Source of the DNA: Promethearchaeota archaeon
Lineage (GTDB): Archaea; Asgardarchaeota; Lokiarchaeia; Sigyniarchaeales; SOKP01
NCBI GenBank assembly: GCA_013375475.1
Contig: JABXKD010000006.1
Span: 13,301 to 77,300 of the forward strand
Length of the DNA: 64,000 nt
Direction of reading: 5' to 3'
The notes beneath the pieces are model-generated. The model saw only the letters and a program-made list of their open reading frames with translations. It made no database searches and was not told the origin of the DNA. Shown piece after piece: positions 12,724 through 56,018 of this stretch (its first letter is position 1; every line of letters begins with the position of its first letter). Position numbers and translations under genes: made by a program.

Positions 12724-13095
12724 TTAATCTTTTTTTAAATTTTCAACGATATTGCTAACTTTATTGGCCACGACTCTTAATAATTCGTTTTTATTGAGCA
12801 AATCTTGTTGTATTTGTGAATCGATCTTATTGAAGTTGTCTTCTTTAGCACTTTTCTCATCTTCAGAAGTGATCTCTTCTCTTTTTATACGATCAATACA
12901 AAAACTTAGGAAATTAGAAATATCTTTAACTATACGGCCGCGACATAATAATAAGTTCTGTTTTAATTGCTTAGCTTCTATTTTACCTTCTGTAAAATTT
13001 TTAATGATGATCTTCAGTTGTTCTAATTCTTCTTCGTCAAAAACAATCTTTTCAACTACTTGCTCGTAATTTTGGCTTTTTTGACTAGTTTCCAT
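12724..13095 (-). CDS. Hypothetical helical protein, last gene of the 18478-12724 operon
   Basis: Start overlaps the stop of the upstream 1261-aa gene. Confidence 0.65.
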   Translation of the reverse strand: METSQKSQNYEQVVEKIVFDEEELEQLKIIIKNFTEGKIEAKQLKQNLLLCRGRIVKDISNFLSFCIDRIKREEITSEDEKSAKEDNFNKIDSQIQQDLLNKNELLRVVANKVSNIVENLKKD

Positions 13096-16000
13096 TTTTA
13101 TCCACCATTTTACCTTCTACGTACGATTTAAATTTGTTGAACAGTTGTGAGTAAGATTTGAATATCTTTTTGCTCTGTTGATCCAAGTTATTTTCTTCTA
13201 AAGATATCTTGTCGAACTTAAAGAGGAATTCTGTCAGTTCTTTCTCCGTGAACGGAAATCCTTCAGCACTAGTTATAAATTTTACGAAGTTTTGAATATC
13301 TACGCTAGTTATCGCGTAATTTACGCTATAATAGCTTTTATAAGTGCTATGCAGAAACTTTCTAAGCAATGTCTTGGCAATTTTCAAAGCTTTTTCGTGG
13401 TTTTGTTGGTCGATGTATTTATGCATGTTGAAAAATTCGTAGTACAAAATAGGTGCAAAATGTTCCGTTAACGCGCGTTTCAAATTAACAATTTTGATTT
13501 CAATAACATTAGTAGCTTCTATTTGCGTTAGTTTATCCGATTCGAGTTCTACAGGTTCGTAAGCAATTAATGAACTCTCTCGAGACTCGTAGTAATCTTT
13601 CAGAACTTTTTGGTAATGTGGACCAACTGCAAAAGATGTTTGCATGGATTCCGAACCGCTCGCTCTTCGAGGATGACTCTCAATTAAGTATTGTTGCTTA
13701 ACTAAAATGCCGAAAATGTTGTCTATTATGTCCTTTTCTCTTTTTTTATCTTTAGTCACTTTTAAAATGTAAGGGTGAAGAACTTTCTGTAGCTCCTCTT
13801 TCACCTTTTTTTTATACATGTTTCCTACTTTATCTACAACTTGGAGATTGTTCAAAAATTTAATTGTCCCCTCGATTAAATCGCTGTACCCGGCAAAATC
13901 GCTTTCGAATAAAGTAGTTTGGGCTCGTTTCATGATTTTTCTTTCAGTTTTTTCCAAGTCGTACCCCTGTTTTTGCATATAACTTACGATTTCTTGCCAG
14001 GACATTGGTTTTACATCTCTTAATTCCTCTAGATCGAATTTGACAGGAAATGTTTGGTAGATATCTCCTCTTTTCACGACTGCTTCGTCTTGTTTCATGT
14101 TTCCAATGTACCTTGCTTGAAATCCTTCGTTTCTACTTGTGCTGTAATATCCTACTCCATGAAGGCTCTCTAAGTTCATCTGACCGTTAAGGACTGCCAT
14201 GTCTCGTTTATCGGTTGCCCGAAAAGTAACAATATTGGTTAAATAATTAAATATGTTCGGGTGTAAATATCGAATTTGGGAAGCAGAATAGATAGTTCCA
14301 AACTCCTTTTCAACTAAGGGATCGAAAAACTTATCGATTTTTCCGTATTGAATTCGTTTATCGAGGAAAAAGCCATCGAACAAAATATCAATGTGAGGCA
14401 TTATTATAAATTTTGAATAGTGTGGCTTTCCTGATCGTAAATAATGAATGAACTTAGAAATTACCACAAACGCGAAATAACATTGTTTATCGTAATCTTT
14501 CACATCTGAGAGGTCTATAATAACCGTTTTATCGTTCGTGATAAACTCGTAGGCAAGCGCTGTATTTTCCGTATCTTGTTGTTGGTGATGGATAAAAGAC
14601 GATTCCTGAGGTGTGAACTCTTTAAAAAAGGAAAGAAGGGTGTCAGTAACCGTAGATTTTTCCCACTCGCGCATCGTAGTTAAATCTAAAACTAATGTTG
14701 ATATGTCAATGTCGGGATTCCGTAAGATTGTGTTTTTGAAAGTTTCTATCGTTCTTTCGTCTTTTTTAAAAGACATGGCGTAGGCGTCAAGCATGTAGTC
14801 AATATATCCAGGATTATCGGTGTCGTAAGGAATCCCAGAACGGAGAGGATTTATAACGAATGTCTTGCCCAACTTATGATAAATGAACTGGTTTTCGTAA
14901 ATTGTACCTTTAAAGTAATTCATTACTTTAGACCAGTTCCCCGTGAAATCGAAAATTACTGAGTCCTGCCCCTTTTTCACTAATTCTACAACAATTTTTT
15001 GACTCAGGAGTTCTCTACTGGAATTCGTCCCATTTGTGAGTAGTAAGTTGTGTAGATGTTCTAATAGAAATCCCGCAGGAACTTCATTTTCCAGAAACTC
15101 TGTGTTAATAGTCTTTCCAACTGTGATAAAGTTAGTTAATTGTAAAGGTGTGTTGAATTCTGTAGCTATTTTTGTCTCTATGCCTTTTTTAAATTGGTCG
15201 GAAAGAGCGGCAAGATATCTCAATGTTTTTCCTTGATACAATACGTAATTCAAATGAGTTCCGTTTCTTAGGAAAAATTTGTTTTTCAAAGTTTCAAACA
15301 TTAGTCCTGCTTCCAATTTATTTTTCCTGAGGGAAACTAATTCGTAGTTAGTAAAAAATTGCTTAAAAGTATTATGAAGAACTACTTTTTGTAACTTTAA
15401 CCGTTGTTCAATTCTATCGATTATTTCATAGCTAACATCGGGAGAATTTATAATCATACTTGTGGAATAGGTTGCAATTGTGCTCCAAACTCCAGCACGG
15501 GAGCTAAGCCAATTATTACCATCAATAAATTTATCCGTTCTTTCTAGAAGCATTTTTTTTTCCCATTCATTTAAATACTTGAACCCTTCCTTGTCAAACT
15601 GATTAAAAGATAAAGGCTTTAACTGAAAAGTAACTGTAAAAGGCATACCTTCACGTATTAAAGCCTCGTAAAACTTATCCGGAGTGCAATAAGAAGGGGG
15701 ATAAGAAAAATTAAGATTAAACATCTTTAGACCACCAACAATTTTTCCTTGAACTTGATAAAAAATACTTTCGGGAGCTTTATTAGACACATAAAACTGT
15801 ACCTTTGAAAAAGGATCGACCACCTCAACATCATTCGATTTAAAAATTTTACGCTTATTAAATTGGAACAATAATTCTCGCCACCAAATTGCTATTAAGC
15901 TTACCAAGAAAAAAATACTTAGTAAAATTCGAAATCCTATTGGTAAGCCGATGACAAAAAGCACTATGTCAAGCGATACCACTATTGAAAGCATGTAAAT

Positions 16001-55543: not shown

Positions 55544-55592
55544 ACGAGTTTTACGAATTTTTCTTTAAATAGAACGAATTGATCTTGAATCC

Positions 55593-56018
55593 ATGATAAC
55601 TCCTGAGCTTGTAGAAGAGGAGAAAAGTTTAAGCTTTGCTCCTGAGCTTATAGAAGAGAAGAAGAGTTTAAGTTTTGTGAAATGTAGAATCTGTCATAAA
55701 AATGCAAATCCAGAAATAACCATAAAAAAAATGGGAATTTCATTCGGTGTGATCTGTAAAAGGTGCTCCAAATTATTCACTGATAGAGATATCGAGTTAA
55801 TGCATAACATGTTTACCGCGTTTGGAGGATACTTTTCTAAGATGAGTAATTCTAAGGAGGTTACTGTTTCTAAATTAAAAGAAATCGCAAAAAATTACAA
55901 AACTCGAAATAAAAATAGCGAAAATATTGAAAACGAAATAAAAACGCTCCATTCAGCATTTCTCTATGGAATTAGGCCACAACAGTTAGTCAAAAGCTTA
56001 AAATTATCAATTAATTAA
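55593..56018 (+). CDS. Zn-finger protein, paralogue of 37595-37972
   Basis: CRIC...GVICKRC, MFTAFGGYF, FLYGIRP; motif promoter at 55556-55572. Confidence 0.65.
   Translation: MITPELVEEEKSLSFAPELIEEKKSLSFVKCRICHKNANPEITIKKMGISFGVICKRCSKLFTDRDIELMHNMFTAFGGYFSKMSNSKEVTVSKLKEIAKNYKTRNKNSENIENEIKTLHSAFLYGIRPQQLVKSLKLSIN
55600..55677 (+). repeat. Two imperfect 39-nt tandem repeats (PELxEExKSLSF)
   Basis: ctcctgagcttgtagaagaggagaaaagtttaagctttg followed by ctcctgagcttatagaagagaagaagagtttaagttttg. Confidence 0.85.

Follow-up and report, generated by a model that had tools for sequence, protein, structure and literature searches.

A chromosomal regulon with its own promoter element in Lokiarchaeia-type Asgard archaea and its possible role in DNA exchange and recombination

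About 20 transcription units very probably constitute a real, chromosomal regulon that a family of Lokiarchaeia-type Asgard archaea has conserved and that is gathered in one block of ~55 kb in the genus studied here. By analogy with known systems, we tentatively suggest that the function of this regulon is DNA exchange and recombination. The window analysed is a stretch of 64,000 nt (contig JABXKD010000006.1 of assembly GCA_013375475.1, forward strand, 13,301 to 77,300); positions below are those of the window, and its features are listed in Table 1. An earlier note, made from the letters of this DNA, had placed a programme of motif-controlled units at 12724-56018. Such units do lie there, but they begin further left, at about 513.

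A shared promoter element

The element consists of a T-run and a C followed by a TATA box (exact form TTTTTCTTTAAATA). The T-run and C lie directly 5' of the TTTAAATA TATA box, which is the stretch where archaeal TFB reads the BRE. The 3.92-Mb genome has 13 copies of the exact form; nine are in the window, six of these inside 12724-56018. A looser pattern matches 80 times genome-wide, 22 times on this contig and at most twice on any other. Of the 17 genome sites with a PWM score of at least 20, 15 are on this contig, from whose own sites the PWM was derived. Of the 23 PWM sites in the window, 22 fall between genes, most of them 22-59 nt upstream of a same-strand start codon, and about 20 start codons are preceded by the motif. 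Ahead of 222 further long ORFs in the same genome, the TATA box is preceded by 14 nt that are rich in A, with ~10% C; in the motif promoters of this contig the sequence before the TATA box is T-rich, with 38% C at -2 and -1 (n = 8 promoters).

The motif was found in all 10 related stretches, with 4-20 sites in each. The complete genome G107 belongs to another genus and was left out of the motif derivation; in it, the orthologues of the block genes are scattered over four chromosomal loci, and 11 of 13 motif sites lie upstream of them at these separate loci. The motif-controlled units read from the letters are borne out. As the motif precedes the orthologues even where these are dispersed, a chromosomal regulon is indicated rather than a mobile element. 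The motif is kept in G107 by the 980-aa surface protein gene, the Top1-type Zn-ribbon and MglAB operons, the 389-aa GNAT-like gene and the 385-aa PP-loop-like gene, whose orthologue lies next to the translocase module.

Table 1. Features of the window, with promoter motifs and family assignments
Feature	Position	Strand	Motif (PWM score)	Remarks
Radical-SAM gene	1-456, continuing on contig	-	513-526 (24.0)	Radical_SAM E 5.6e-14; motif 57 nt ahead of start codon
385-aa PP-loop-like protein	575-1791	-	1778-1791 (25.8)	Weak Pfam ATP_bind_3/Arginosuc_synth
389-aa GNAT-like protein	8502-9741	-	9728-9741 (25.0)	Conserved in relatives' blocks
411-aa conserved protein	10381-11616	-	Weak, ~11668	Weak GNAT match
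ThiF/E1-like enzyme	11707-12648	+	11707-11720 (19.5)	ThiF E 8.3e-34
Four-gene operon, HerA-like module	12724-18542	-	18529-18542 (25.7)	249-aa membrane protein 17729-18478; 284-aa membrane protein 16878-17732; 1261-aa HerA/VirB4-fold membrane protein 13085-16870; 123-aa protein 12724-13095
623-aa protein	18916-20829	-	20816-20829 (18.8)	N-terminal HhH, two C-terminal TM helices
Hel308-like helicase	21057-23576	+		295-409 bits with NCBIfam Hel308 models, none reaching cut-off
Three-gene operon	25338-28626	-		191-aa protein; Hef-type helicase 25870-28035; DUF1922 Zn-ribbon 25338-25877
980-aa surface protein	30673-33682	-	33669-33682 (22.9)	
424-aa TFIIB/TFB/Brf-like protein	33753-35027	-	None upstream	Foldseek
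Three-gene operon	35609-37491	+	35609-35622	M50-like 35650-36417; 116-aa TM protein; RadB/KaiC-like P-loop protein 36772-37491
125-aa Zn-finger protein	37560-37972	+	37560-37573	Paralogue of 55593-56018
Third RadA paralogue	39993-41314	+	39993-40006	Pfam Rad51 200.8 bits
Bulge-helix-bulge-like intron in radA-like mRNA	40846-40876	+		31 nt
Top1-type Zn-ribbon operon	43156-44568	-	44555-44568 (20.8)	105-aa Zn-ribbon 44189-44506; 356-aa surface protein 43156-44226
131-aa three-TM protein	45491-45886	-		Kept in relatives' block
FEN1 paralogue	45949-47283	+	45949-45962	Gene 46189-47283; XPG_I/XPG_N
205-aa conserved protein	47303-48000	+	47303-47316	
RPA-like two-OB protein	48692-49685	+	48692-48705 (26.6)	
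CoiA-like nuclease, accessory	49693-50517	-	None	CoiA_nuc E 6.9e-11
DUF998-like six-TM protein	52373-53106	+	52373-52386	
MglAB operon	53115-55543	+	53115-53128	175-aa MglB-like protein; MglA-type GTPase 53726-54379; 380-aa protein
141-aa Zn-finger protein	55558-56018	+	55558-55571 (24.5)	

Distribution among relatives

The block is syntenic in the 10 related stretches compared, and its genes share a distribution instead of each being patchy on its own. Of 101 genomes of the family, 73 carry the HerA-like gene, complete single-contig genomes among them, and the HerA-like system is near-universal and mostly single-copy. In G038, which is a complete genome from a different family, block-type RadA, FEN1, TFB-like, HerA-like, M50-like, MglAB and Hef-like genes lie within ~40 kb, and four of these lie within 30 kb in G083. 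The block proteins evolve fast, with ~35-70% identity to relatives versus 55-89% for flank genes.

The methyltransferase, the DUF885 gene, the Opp permease, the CoiA gene and 41417-42688 are missing from most relatives' blocks. The segment 28676-30460, considered as an apparatus part, was rejected, being a fused OppB/OppC-type ABC permease and an ordinary inserted gene. The CoiA-like gene does adjoin rpa, as the earlier note had pointed out, but it is accessory, as it occurs in only one of the 10 related stretches, and there elsewhere in the neighbourhood.

Recombination proteins

Judged by model scores, the RadA, FEN1, Hef and RPA of the window are specialised paralogues, since canonical RadA, FEN1 and Hef and a better-scoring RPA are encoded elsewhere in the genome. 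The two canonical RadA copies (448 and 456 bits) are above the equivalog cut-off and the window copy is below it; G107 lacks a block-type RadA (best match 45% identical). The window FEN1 reaches 268.7 bits with fen_arch (cut-off 352), versus 418.7 for the canonical FEN1 on contig C11, and each of the five other genomes tested has two FEN1 types. The window Hef-type helicase, which lacks the XPF nuclease domain, scores 557 bits (cut-off 610) and covers only positions 6-552 of the 781 in the model; a full-length Hef on contig C284 scores 843 bits, above the equivalog cut-off. With Replication factor A models the window RPA scores at most 106 bits, below cut-off, and the other RPA, on contig C234, 204 bits.

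The exception to the earlier reading of divergent extra copies is Hel308. The window gene is the best NF002654 (Hel308) match in its own assembly and is 67-96% identical in relatives; because it appears to be the sole copy, at least this regulon member is probably housekeeping. Of the proposed toolkit, RadA, FEN1, RPA, the Hel308-like helicase and the nuclease-less Hef stand, while the RadB-like protein (TIGR02237, 39 bits, cut-off 172) and the TopA Zn finger (105 aa; Zn_ribbon_Top1, E 0.01, 16 bits, cut-off 32) fall below cut-off.

An intron in the radA-like gene

The conserved translated N-terminus of the radA-like gene starts at ~40063, exon 1 ends at 40845, and exon 2 (40877-41314) encodes an acidic linker and a C-terminal HhH. 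The 31-nt insert between them occurs in seven of the 27 copies examined, always at the same site. It can be folded with a central helix GGAA/UUCU and bulges AUA and AAA, and the inner helix carries compensatory changes, with three of five pairs altered on both sides among the copies compared. One metatranscriptome contig skips exactly 40846-40876, with 0 and 1 mismatches in the flanks, and two DNA runs retain these positions; the spliced contig is a single one of depth 3.4, from a study with no DNA run in the comparison. RNA-library contigs match the radA-like gene with 0-3 mismatches; those on the TFB-like gene match at lower identity and hence come from relatives.

The genome contains two EndA genes. 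It is highly likely that this intron, already suspected from the letters, is spliced. As 31 is not a multiple of three, an unspliced message would give a truncated protein and splicing would restore the frame. In this species full-length RadA would be made only after removal of the intron, presumably by the tRNA splicing endonuclease.

In eukaryotes, the HAC1 and XBP1 messages are spliced unconventionally in the cytoplasm: they contain a short, non-spliceosomal intron that is cut by Ire1, and the ends are joined by the tRNA-ligase pathway, the frame shift yielding the active protein. The radA-like intron is likewise short and non-spliceosomal, and its removal, with joining predicted to go through the tRNA-ligase pathway too, would shift the frame towards an active protein; however, it is Ire1 and not the tRNA endonuclease that cuts the former, and the stem-loop signals differ. 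The intron of cbf5 pre-mRNA in Crenarchaeota (Desulfurococcales and Sulfolobales) is described as lineage-specifically present or lost among orthologues (PMC2738675), as is the case here. Unlike it, the present intron interrupts a RadA paralogue, in the Asgard phylum, and its 31 nt are frame-restoring upon splicing.

Membrane and surface proteins, MglAB and enzymes

The 1261-aa protein of the HerA-like operon, which is syntenic in relatives, has two N-terminal TM hairpins. Its AF2 model (pLDDT 67, pTM 0.65) matched DndH-C, HerA, VirB4 and TrwB in Foldseek (E 1.8e-10 to 2.6e-7). The VirB4/HerA-like identity holds by fold only, and the P-loop is degenerate: its position reads FDFTGNWSK (F, D, F, G and W do not vary among 27 sequences), there is no canonical Walker A, and the glutamate is missing from a Walker B-like strand, VIIDLS. 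As far as its motifs tell, this protein may not hydrolyse ATP.

The membrane HhH protein of 623 aa has an HHH_5 domain (E 7.8e-11) and TM helices at ~464-500. As the domain is N-terminal and no signal peptide is present, it is probably cytoplasmic and not an external DNA receptor. Both proposed surface proteins have predicted TM anchors: the 980-aa protein consists of an N-terminal TM/signal segment, alpha-alpha toroid repeats and a C-terminal TM anchor (TM at 1 and 940; Prenyltrans E 5.7e-16), and the 356-aa protein has TM helices at 16 and 321. The putative M50 peptidase remains below cut-off (17.1 versus 26 bits); its HExxH lies inside a TM helix. No VirB6-like or pilin-like homologues could be shown for block proteins; small TM proteins are present, but no family match backs the pilin-like peptides of the earlier note.

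MglA was identified by phmmer against PDB (E 1.6e-21; Arf, E 4.2e-8). A complex model with the 175-aa protein gave an ipSAE of 0.67, versus 0.02 for the best of three controls; 51 of 78 solved complexes attain this mark, as do two of 108 mismatched pairs. Model runs agreed in at least 77% of contacts, with a partner pLDDT of at least 79. The model supports the 175-aa protein as an MglA-binding, MglB-like partner, in line with the polarity-type switch proposed before, although, since solved MglA-MglB complexes exist, its pass may reflect likeness to these. The radical-SAM, PP-loop-like, ThiF and GNAT-like enzymes of the regulon are not explained by DNA exchange.

A candidate regulator

The 424-aa protein shows the layout of a Zn ribbon, two cyclin-like repeats and a C-terminal extension. 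Its structure was modelled with low confidence (pLDDT 50.6), and in Foldseek all 35 top-listed matches (ranks 1-37) were TFIIB, Brf1, Brf2 or archaeal TFB (E 7.5e-6 to 3.1e-2). Pfam TFIIB repeats were not detected in the protein, a PDB profile search gave an E of about 0.9 at best, and some of its 321 homologues are labelled TFIIB/Brf1 by JGI. No PWM site lies upstream of its gene in the window genome or in G107. From position and co-occurrence among kin we infer a tie of the units to each other and to this protein; that it is their regulator we regard as an evenly balanced proposition.

Proposed function and alternatives

In the explanation that we put forward, the TFIIB/Brf-like paralogue would recognise the T-run + C element and turn the units on together. 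A recombination set apart from the housekeeping one (third RadA, RadB-like, RPA-like, second FEN1, nuclease-less Hef, Hel308-like) would be joined by a membrane part, composed of the HerA/VirB4-fold protein, its two membrane partners and the tethered HhH DNA-binding protein, and by two anchored surface proteins, the MglA/MglB pair and modifying enzymes. The switched-on state would be cell-cell DNA transfer followed by homologous recombination. As a whole, function included, this best explanation is still a tentative one. It makes it possible to test for regulated DNA exchange in the archaea most closely related to eukaryotes.

It is unlikely that the block is instead a DNA-damage or replication-stress regulon within one cell, in which the TFB paralogue would induce a back-up repair set and the membrane proteins would anchor or organise damaged DNA without transfer. 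All members of clear family are repair or recombination proteins, the HhH protein and the HerA-fold domain would face the cytoplasm, the degenerate P-loop speaks against a DNA pump, and the TFB3 response of Sulfolobales is described as damage-induced (PMC9905601). However, the two surface proteins, MglA/MglB and the M50-like protease are left unexplained, and canonical RadA, FEN1 and Hef already serve repair.

A cell-cycle, chromosome-segregation or differentiation programme, with a cyclic TFB paralogue like TFB2 of Sulfolobus, seems rather improbable. Under this reading the task of clearing or segregating DNA would fall to a HerA/FtsK-like membrane protein, and that of setting polarity to MglAB. 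This would suit the membrane HerA/FtsK-class fold, the polarity GTPase pair and the near-universal, mainly single-copy state in the family, and a TFB-paralogue regulon of division genes offers a precedent, as described in 10.64898/2026.09.06.749720. Against it, a scan of 60 ORFs turned up no division or segregation families (ESCRT, FtsZ, ParA, SMC), routine division would not be expected to need a second recombinase, SSB and flap nuclease, and the block proteins are fast-evolving.

We consider very unlikely a plasmid- or virus-derived element, domesticated or still mobile, with its own promoter type, transcription factor and recombination-dependent replication genes. Large elements typically show such features as a private motif, second replication/recombination copies, many ORFans and a VirB4/HerA-like protein, and some MAGs carry two or three copies of block genes. 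Yet the extra copies in one of them (G008) may come from co-binned relatives, because they are mutually collinear past the block edge and have the window's left-flank gene in common. In line with the earlier note, integrase, relaxase, capsid and replicase families were not found, and neither were terminase, polymerase and primase families (Pfam, 60 ORFs; PHROGs, 10 ORFs). The window contains no tRNA genes, two scans of IMG/VR viral contigs gave no match, and GC is 0.335 here versus 0.325 for the genome. The window flanks are common to two relatives (G012 and G002), which, together with the synteny, the occurrence across the family and the dispersal in G107 with the motif retained, upholds a chromosomal, vertically inherited, non-mobile programme.

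An anti-virus defence island around the HerA-like and Hel308/HamB-like helicases is hardly credible: DndH and HerA subunits from defence complexes are among the Foldseek matches and the Hel308-like protein matches Hachiman HamB models, but at best with 157.5 bits, far below the 409 bits for Hel308, PADLOC was silent for the HerA-like protein and six of nine others tested (HerA operon partners, the HhH protein and the 191-aa, 380-aa and 423-aa proteins), the remaining three matched a generic helicase or a weak P-loop only, no HamA, Sir2 or nuclease partner is adjacent, and stable synteny with a near-universal single copy is unlike defence islands.

Comparison with known systems

In bacterial competence, an alternative sigma factor or activator acts with com-box promoters on genes such as ssbB, comEA, comFA, dprA and coiA. 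The regulon proposed here resembles it in pairing a private promoter element with a candidate dedicated initiation factor, in a second SSB, and in grouping helicases, an HhH membrane protein and recombination mediators. It differs in using TFB for sigma and RadA for RecA; moreover, no ComEC-like channel was found in the block, the HhH domain is probably intracellular, and the CoiA-like gene is accessory.

TFB3 is a truncated factor, unlike the block factor, which is TFIIB-like in fold and Brf-like in length. In the UV response of Sulfolobales, TFB3 controls Ced (DNA import), Ups (pili) and the HerA-NurA operon together (PMC9905601), therefore the comparison with Ced drawn earlier is apt as an analogy, but not as membership. 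As that source describes them, this system and Ted of Thermoproteales are like the block, as proposed here, in that a basal-factor paralogue co-regulates VirB4/HerA-class, membrane partner, surface and recombination genes; both are chromosomal and non-self-transferring, with recombination genes beside transfer genes. Unlike in Ced, the VirB4/HerA-fold protein of the block has a length of ~1260 aa, carries two TM hairpins at its N-terminus and lacks a canonical Walker A, homologues of CedA/VirB6 and CedA1/VirB2 could not be shown in the block, and the recombination genes are dedicated paralogues, not the housekeeping set.

A TFB paralogue also drives a defined regulon in Sulfolobus (10.64898/2026.09.06.749720). 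Just as TFB2 of Sulfolobus acidocaldarius is linked to a definite promoter set with an architecture unlike that of TFB1 promoters, a TFIIB paralogue appears here to be linked to a promoter set of its own. According to the same source, the BREs there are similar and only spacing differs, and the targets are division genes, whereas here it is the upstream element itself (T-run + C) that differs, and the targets are recombination genes.

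A promoter element nearly private to the contig

The upstream regions of the window units share the consensus AATTTTTTCTTTAAATA, in which a T-run and a C precede the TATA box. For the 14-mer TTTTTCTTTAAATA, the genome contains 13 exact copies, nine of which fall in the window, and a looser pattern was found 80 times, with 22 occurrences on the window's contig (C255) and at most two on every other contig. Fifteen of the 17 sites with a weight-matrix (PWM) score of at least 20 lie on C255, a figure that is circular for this contig, as the matrix was built from its own sites. Within the window, all but one of the 23 PWM sites are intergenic, most of them located 22-59 nt 5' of a start codon on the same strand, and the sites mark approximately 20 units, from about position 513 to 55571. 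The motif-controlled units described in the earlier note are borne out by the share of exact motifs in the window and by the intergenic position of the PWM sites.

In the 14 nt 5' of the TATA box, the sequences upstream of 222 other long ORFs are A-rich, with approximately 10% C, whereas on C255 (only eight promoters) T predominates in the same stretch and C makes up 38% of positions -2 and -1. This bias directly 5' of the TATA box places what is private in the motif at the BRE position. The base context around all TTTAWATA words in the genome was flat and uninformative. Six of 23 motif-like sites with a PWM score of at least 18 lie off C255, mostly with no ORF at promoter distance, and are treated as chance occurrences or unverified extra members of the regulon; their possible targets are a small GTPase on contig C235, a 240-aa protein on C9 adjoining a CoiA paralogue, and a membrane protein on C33.

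In the complete genome G107, which belongs to another genus, the block genes are distributed among four loci, as far as 2.4 Mb from one another, and 11 of the 13 PWM sites in these loci stand upstream of orthologues of window block genes, i.e. those encoding TopA-Zn, the 131-aa protein, FEN1, the 205-aa protein, M50, the 980-aa surface protein, MglB, the 84-aa protein, the GNAT-like, the PP-loop-like and the 411-aa proteins. The cis-element thus tracks its genes through rearrangement at 30-70% protein identity, which is the signature of a regulon.

Two inserts were noted among the motif-bearing units. Around the 114-aa two-TM gene, a contig of the DNA sequencing run X2 joins both ends via 29 other letters that contain the promoter motif, so this gene, also missing in relatives, is a strain-variable insertion between two motif copies. 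No ORF follows one of these copies on its strand for 980 nt, and this copy may therefore drive a small RNA or an antisense transcript. The other insert comprises ordinary, motif-less genes (Ras-like GTPase, GT2 glycosyltransferase, PIG-L deacetylase, BshC-like, amidohydrolase and URO-D) between two motif-bearing units; only the first two of these genes occupy the corresponding place in the related genome G012.

Features of the window (window positions; strand where recorded)
Feature	Position	Remark
Ordinary motif-less genes	1875-8354	insert between motif-bearing units
1261-aa HerA/VirB4-fold protein	13085-16870 (-)	
249-aa membrane protein	17729-18478	
HhH protein	18916-20787	two TM helices
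Hel308-like helicase	21057-23576	
ORF	24542	no motif, not conserved in relatives
Hef-like helicase	25870-28035	
Fused OppB/OppC permease	28676-30460	ordinary inserted gene
424-aa TFB-like protein	33753-35027 (-)	candidate regulator
Small TM protein	36418-36768	
ORF	39423	no motif, not conserved in relatives
RadA-like N-terminal HhH segment	40054-40152	
RadA-like core	40153-40914	Rad51, 200.8 bits
Intron	40846-40876	31 nt
RadA core end and HhH domain	40907-41314	in another frame
423-aa DUF4379/DUF2726 protein	41417-42688 (+)	
Joint in X2 DNA contig	44699-45215	
Two-TM protein, 114 aa	44831-45175	
Motif copy without ORF	45194-45207	
Small TM protein	45491-45886	
FEN1	46189-47283	
RPA-like OB protein	48741-49685	
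CoiA_nuc	49693-50517	
MglB-like gene	53174	ATG start
Small GTPase	53726-54379	

A TFIIB-like candidate regulator

The candidate regulator of these units is the 424-aa protein, which was found in 22 of 24 further genomes of the genus, usually as a single copy, and has 321 homologues in Lokiarchaeia-type MAGs, on contigs of up to 239 kb. Its Zn ribbon (CxxC...CxxC, residues 24-44) is invariant in 30 sequences. Matches to TFIIB are faint (NCBIfam, E 0.23; Pfam Zn_Ribbon_TF, E 0.16), the PDB profile search gave E ~0.9 only, and Pfam TFIIB repeats, with 16 matches in the genome, were detected neither in this protein nor elsewhere on C255. The AF2 model is of low confidence (pLDDT 50.6 overall, 70-85 for residues 100-260 only); nevertheless, all 35 of its top-listed Foldseek matches in PDB (ranks 1-37; best E 7.5e-6) were TFIIB, Brf1, Brf2 or archaeal TFB, which would fit the two cyclin-like repeats of that family, and JGI names some of the homologues TFIIB/Brf1. 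From the position of the T-run-C element, directly 5' of the TATA box, we infer that the 424-aa protein binds TBP-DNA and reads this element as a BRE. No copy of the motif was found upstream of its own gene in the window or in G107. The promoter element and the TFIIB/Brf-like paralogue would jointly define the regulon, which bears on the specialisation of basal-factor paralogues, the Brf-like ones especially.

The C-terminus of this family carries the invariant pattern ...P.GPP..C, whose cysteine is the last residue; hypothetically, the protein could be lipidated, or released from the membrane by the adjacent M50-like protease. The neighbouring 980-aa protein contains prenyltransferase-type alpha-alpha toroid repeats. 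Besides the 424-aa paralogue, the source genome has a large basal-factor family of about nine canonical TFB genes (16 TFIIB-repeat matches), on contigs C234, C222, C241, C219, C11, C244, C155, C262 and C279.

Distribution and chromosomal location of the block

A mobile element or virus with its own promoter, which at the outset seemed slightly the better bet, was dropped, as the block genes are family-wide, mostly single-copy and chromosomal, share their flanks with relatives and, in G107, are dispersed with the motif kept. The whole block is syntenic in ten related stretches. The left flank of the window is shared by G012, and in G002, another relative, the right flank lies on the opposite side of the block, which represents an inversion. 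The HerA-like gene occurs in 80 of 121 genomes of the order, complete single-contig genomes included: in one family (f1) in 73 of 101 genomes across 12 genera, in a second (f2) in 6 of 14 (weak), and in none of the five genomes of f3 and f4. In G038, a complete genome from another family, block-type RadA, FEN1, MglAB, TFB-like, M50-like, HerA-like and Hef-like genes lie within approximately 40 kb.

The source assembly (3.92 Mb, 288 contigs) has a GC content of 0.325, and the contig 0.335. Scans covered 60 ORFs with Pfam, 21 proteins with NCBIfam, and ten each with PHROGs and PADLOC. No integrase, relaxase, capsid, terminase or replicase families were found in the window ORFs (Pfam, 60 ORFs; PHROGs, 10), no tRNA genes in the window, and no Rfam family at the gathering score. 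None of the ten ORFans had a PHROGs match at E ≤0.001, the only two sub-threshold matches being a DNA-polymerase HhH stretch (E 0.0013) and an unknown family (E 0.0083). Viral contigs gave no match in two scans, made with single-protein queries whose reach is close relatives only. Neither marker genes, nor att/tRNA borders, nor a variable location were found; the location and flanks are conserved. The earlier note had viewed the genes as chromosomal rather than mobile and had suggested examining their synteny and co-occurrence across Asgard genomes; the ten syntenic stretches, the shared flanks, the lack of mobile-element families and the spread of the HerA-like gene all agree with that view.

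Three copies in the genome G008 (on C12, C49 and C20) were considered as a sign of mobility, which was rejected: beyond the block, C12 and C49 remain collinear, with a nucleotide identity of 75-93%, and both carry a homologue of the window's left-flank gene, and the C20 copy groups with G002. The extra copies may belong to co-binned relatives, given the 9% estimated contamination. Two to four copies of TFB-like or HerA-like genes were also seen in several genomes of other genera (G087, on C9 and C6; G058, G084, G077 and G124). As the copies on C9 of G087 lie at 389.5 kb and 549.2 kb of one large contig, real paralogous sub-clusters exist besides possible co-binning.

Several genes within the block have no motif and are not conserved in relatives, i.e. 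the ORFs at 24542 and 39423, the Opp permease, the DUF4379/DUF2726 and 114-aa proteins, the methyltransferase, CoiA and DUF885. The DUF4379/DUF2726 protein, encoded directly after radA, combines repeated treble-clef Zn fingers with a nuclease-like core and, among the ten related stretches, was found in the source genome only; it looks like an inserted selfish or defence-type gene.

Recombination genes and their second copies

The gene calls of the earlier note between 12724 and 56018 mostly hold, i.e. RadA-like, FEN1, RPA-like, Hel308-like, Hef-like, the HhH membrane protein and CoiA_nuc. Three further calls found matches below cut-off only: RadB-like (39 versus 172 bits), the Top1-type (TopA) Zn ribbon (16 versus 32 bits) and the M50 peptidase (17.1 versus 26 bits), whose HExxH lies inside a TM helix.

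Two RadA genes elsewhere in the genome (C52 and C215) score 448 and 456 bits, above the equivalog cut-off of 259, and the RadA-like protein of the window is therefore not the sole or main recombinase. A canonical FEN1 (418.7 bits, cut-off 352) and a full-length Hef with an XPF nuclease (C284; 843 bits, cut-off 610) are likewise present elsewhere, together with a second RPA, which at 204 bits is better than the window copy, yet below the cut-off of 362. The window copies of RadA, FEN1, Hef and RPA are all below cut-off, and the Hef-like protein matches model positions 6-552 of 781 only, the XPF-type nuclease part being absent. The separate canonical copies that the earlier note proposed to look for thus exist for RadA (two), FEN1 and Hef, with a better-scoring RPA; Hel308 is the exception, the window copy being the assembly's best match.

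Two FEN1 classes and block-type RadA recur in other genera, and G107 is without block-type RadA. The RadA-like protein counts as full length, with a RecA/Rad51 core carrying Walker A and B, on the Rad51 match of exon 1 (200.8 bits) and on its orthologues. The intron-less RadA-like orthologues align to the model end with 310-315 bits, above the PRK04301 cut-off of 259, and reach 279-281 bits, below the TIGR02236 cut-off of 361; by sequence they score as divergent RadA, with one of the two equivalog cut-offs passed.

A frame-restoring intron in the RadA-like gene

Alignment of orthologues revealed an exact insertion of 31 nt after the Asn codon of ...GGN, present in 7 of the 27 copies examined and absent in the other 20, whose ORF continues for approximately 381 aa. 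Copies with the intron retain the conserved frame downstream of it, which requires excision of the 31 nt. In the window the insertion folds into a bulge-helix-bulge (BHB)-like structure, with a 4-bp helix (GGAA/UUCU), AUA and AAA bulges on opposite strands and an inner intron helix, and the frame-restoring junctions fall after the second base of each bulge. The BHB motif (as defined in a passage of a preprint) is a relaxed one, since its 3' bulge is part of a 2x3 internal loop and, in copies other than that of the window, the outer exon helix is weak. The seven copies show no variation in the central helix, and their inner helix is 97% paired, with three of its five pairs changed on both sides; the covariation score was 0.137 versus 0.079 for shuffles (1/500 as high), and no slid version came close.

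A 402-nt contig (depth 3.4) of the metatranscriptome X14 aligns to 40610-40845 without a mismatch and to 40877-41042 with one, leaving out precisely the 31 nt, and contigs of the DNA runs X2 and X4 are unbroken across the site; this support for splicing is one contig, RNA libraries can hold DNA, and X2 and X4 do not come from the study of X14. The identical-strain contigs of X14 cover only 40072-41290, i.e. the radA-like gene and not its neighbours; neither silence nor habitat can be deduced from RNA-contig gaps in the 20-kb stretch or from the small word shares of runs X5-X20. Translational bypass was rejected, as the landing codon would not restore the conserved frame and the RNA contig lacks the 31 nt. 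The exact insert, its fold, the covariation and the RNA contig together uphold the intron in RadA proposed in the earlier note.

The genome has two EndA genes (tRNA_int_endo, 99.1 and 70.4 bits), and a preprint reports that 58 of 60 Asgard genomes have EndA. Crenarchaeal cbf5 holds the known mRNA introns of this type (PMC2738675); the present one, also non-spliceosomal, interrupts a protein-coding mRNA in an Asgard archaeon, and its removal restores the frame. Because the intron causes gene callers to truncate RadA, surveys of Asgard RadA may have missed or discarded the RadA-like gene. We found no published description of the regulon, the motif, the 424-aa factor or an Asgard RadA mRNA intron at the level of abstracts and passages; the supplements of PMC12722695 may list this RadA paralogue.

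The membrane module and the putative MglAB pair

The 1261-aa protein, a candidate counterpart of the VirB4/HerA-like ATPase of the Ced/Ted archaeal DNA-import systems, has two N-terminal TM hairpins. A model of its central 621 residues (pLDDT 67, pTM 0.65) matched the structures of DndH-C, HerA, VirB4 and TrwB at E 1.8e-10 to 2.6e-7, in agreement with the Atlas lead. The P-loop position reads FDFTGNWSK, conserved in 27 sequences, and not GxxGxGK[ST], and the Walker B-like strand is VIIDLS, which makes ATPase activity doubtful. The 249-aa and 284-aa membrane proteins of the same operon, the candidates for a polytopic channel of the VirB6/CedA type, belong to no recognisable family (Pfam, PHROGs), and the Atlas gave only unnamed clusters for the former. 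The three small TM proteins of the block showed no family match to a two-helix pilin of the VirB2/CedA1 type. The orthologue of the 249-aa gene on C49 of G008 (loci L024/L025) appears as two overlapping tblastn pieces (residues 1-159 and 135-249), which suggests a frameshift or another short insertion.

In PDB, the small GTPase matches Myxococcus and Thermus MglA best (E 1.6e-21 to 3e-20), followed by Arf at E 4.2e-8, so its earlier naming as MglA is well founded. The 175-aa protein encoded upstream has no sequence match, and PDB searches with it and the 105-aa protein gave nothing below E 0.7. A model of MglA with two copies of the 175-aa protein scored 0.67, versus 0.02 for the best of three controls. 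Of 78 solved complexes, 51 attain this mark, as do 2 of 108 mismatched pairs. Agreement between the runs extends to at least 77% of contacts, with a partner pLDDT of at least 79. The modelling supports binding of the 175-aa protein to MglA as a dimer, although the pass may reflect likeness to solved MglA-MglB structures.

Possible functions of the regulon

A conserved regulon combines a dedicated recombination set, a membrane operon with a HerA/VirB4 fold, surface proteins and a putative polarity pair. From this content we tentatively infer a function in DNA exchange and recombination, at somewhat less than an even chance. The nearest precedent is that of Sulfolobales, where, according to passages of PMC9905601, TFB3 co-regulates Ced, Ups and a HerA operon, and Ted loci adjoin recombination genes. 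DNA exchange leaves without explanation (i) the degenerate P-loop, (ii) the probably cytoplasmic HhH domain, (iii) the missing evidence for a pilin or VirB6, and (iv) the radical-SAM, PP-loop-like, ThiF and GNAT-like units.

When the same genes are read as a purely intracellular damage response, the result seems unlikely, and a cell-cycle or differentiation programme, for which TFB2 provides a precedent, a little less probable still. A domesticated element, in a block of conserved location and flanks, is improbable, and defence, for which PADLOC (10 proteins) returned generic helicase or P-loop matches only, very improbable. The regulon would still offer enrichment-culture work a defined target if it served repair or differentiation.

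Within the reading as DNA exchange and recombination, one could envisage, as an unlikely but specific case, a dedicated switchable "mating" state, based on a Brf-length TFIIB paralogue, a transfer apparatus, a separate recombinase set and, in some species, a spliced RadA. The paralogue would read the private BRE and turn on the approximately 20 units, which would build an apparatus for cell contact and DNA transfer (surface proteins, a HerA/VirB4-derived membrane complex and MglAB-directed polarity) and a meiosis-like separate recombinase set (the third RadA, RPA and FEN1 paralogues, and helicases). An additional gate on the recombinase, in some species, would be the splicing of its mRNA by the tRNA endonuclease, which restores the frame and would be the prokaryotic counterpart to that of HAC1/XBP1.

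The window's recombinase, SSB and flap-nuclease set, kept apart from the housekeeping copies, follows the same logic as the Rad51/Dmc1 split in eukaryotes. Two Asgard RadA clades have been published, and the trees of PMC12722695 place the Rad51/Dmc1 split after the divergence from known Asgard RadA.

Possible non-AUG starts

Sequence conservation, with a pattern of synonymous changes, extends to the N-terminal HhH segment (…SDLDQVK.INARQIKLLQESGISTAEALA) of the RadA-like protein (loci L044-L072), and in most copies an in-frame stop lies four codons upstream of it. The start position is occupied by ATT or ATA, and by ATG in four copies (G008 C12, G008 C49, G057 and G023); in the related genome G056 an upstream ATG is reached through a 1-nt difference in an A-run. 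These sequences imply a non-AUG start or some recoding. The MglB-like gene is a possible second case of non-AUG initiation in the regulon, as its orthologues L035:15359, L019:5254 and L023:2586 have ATT/ATA where the window has its ATG start.
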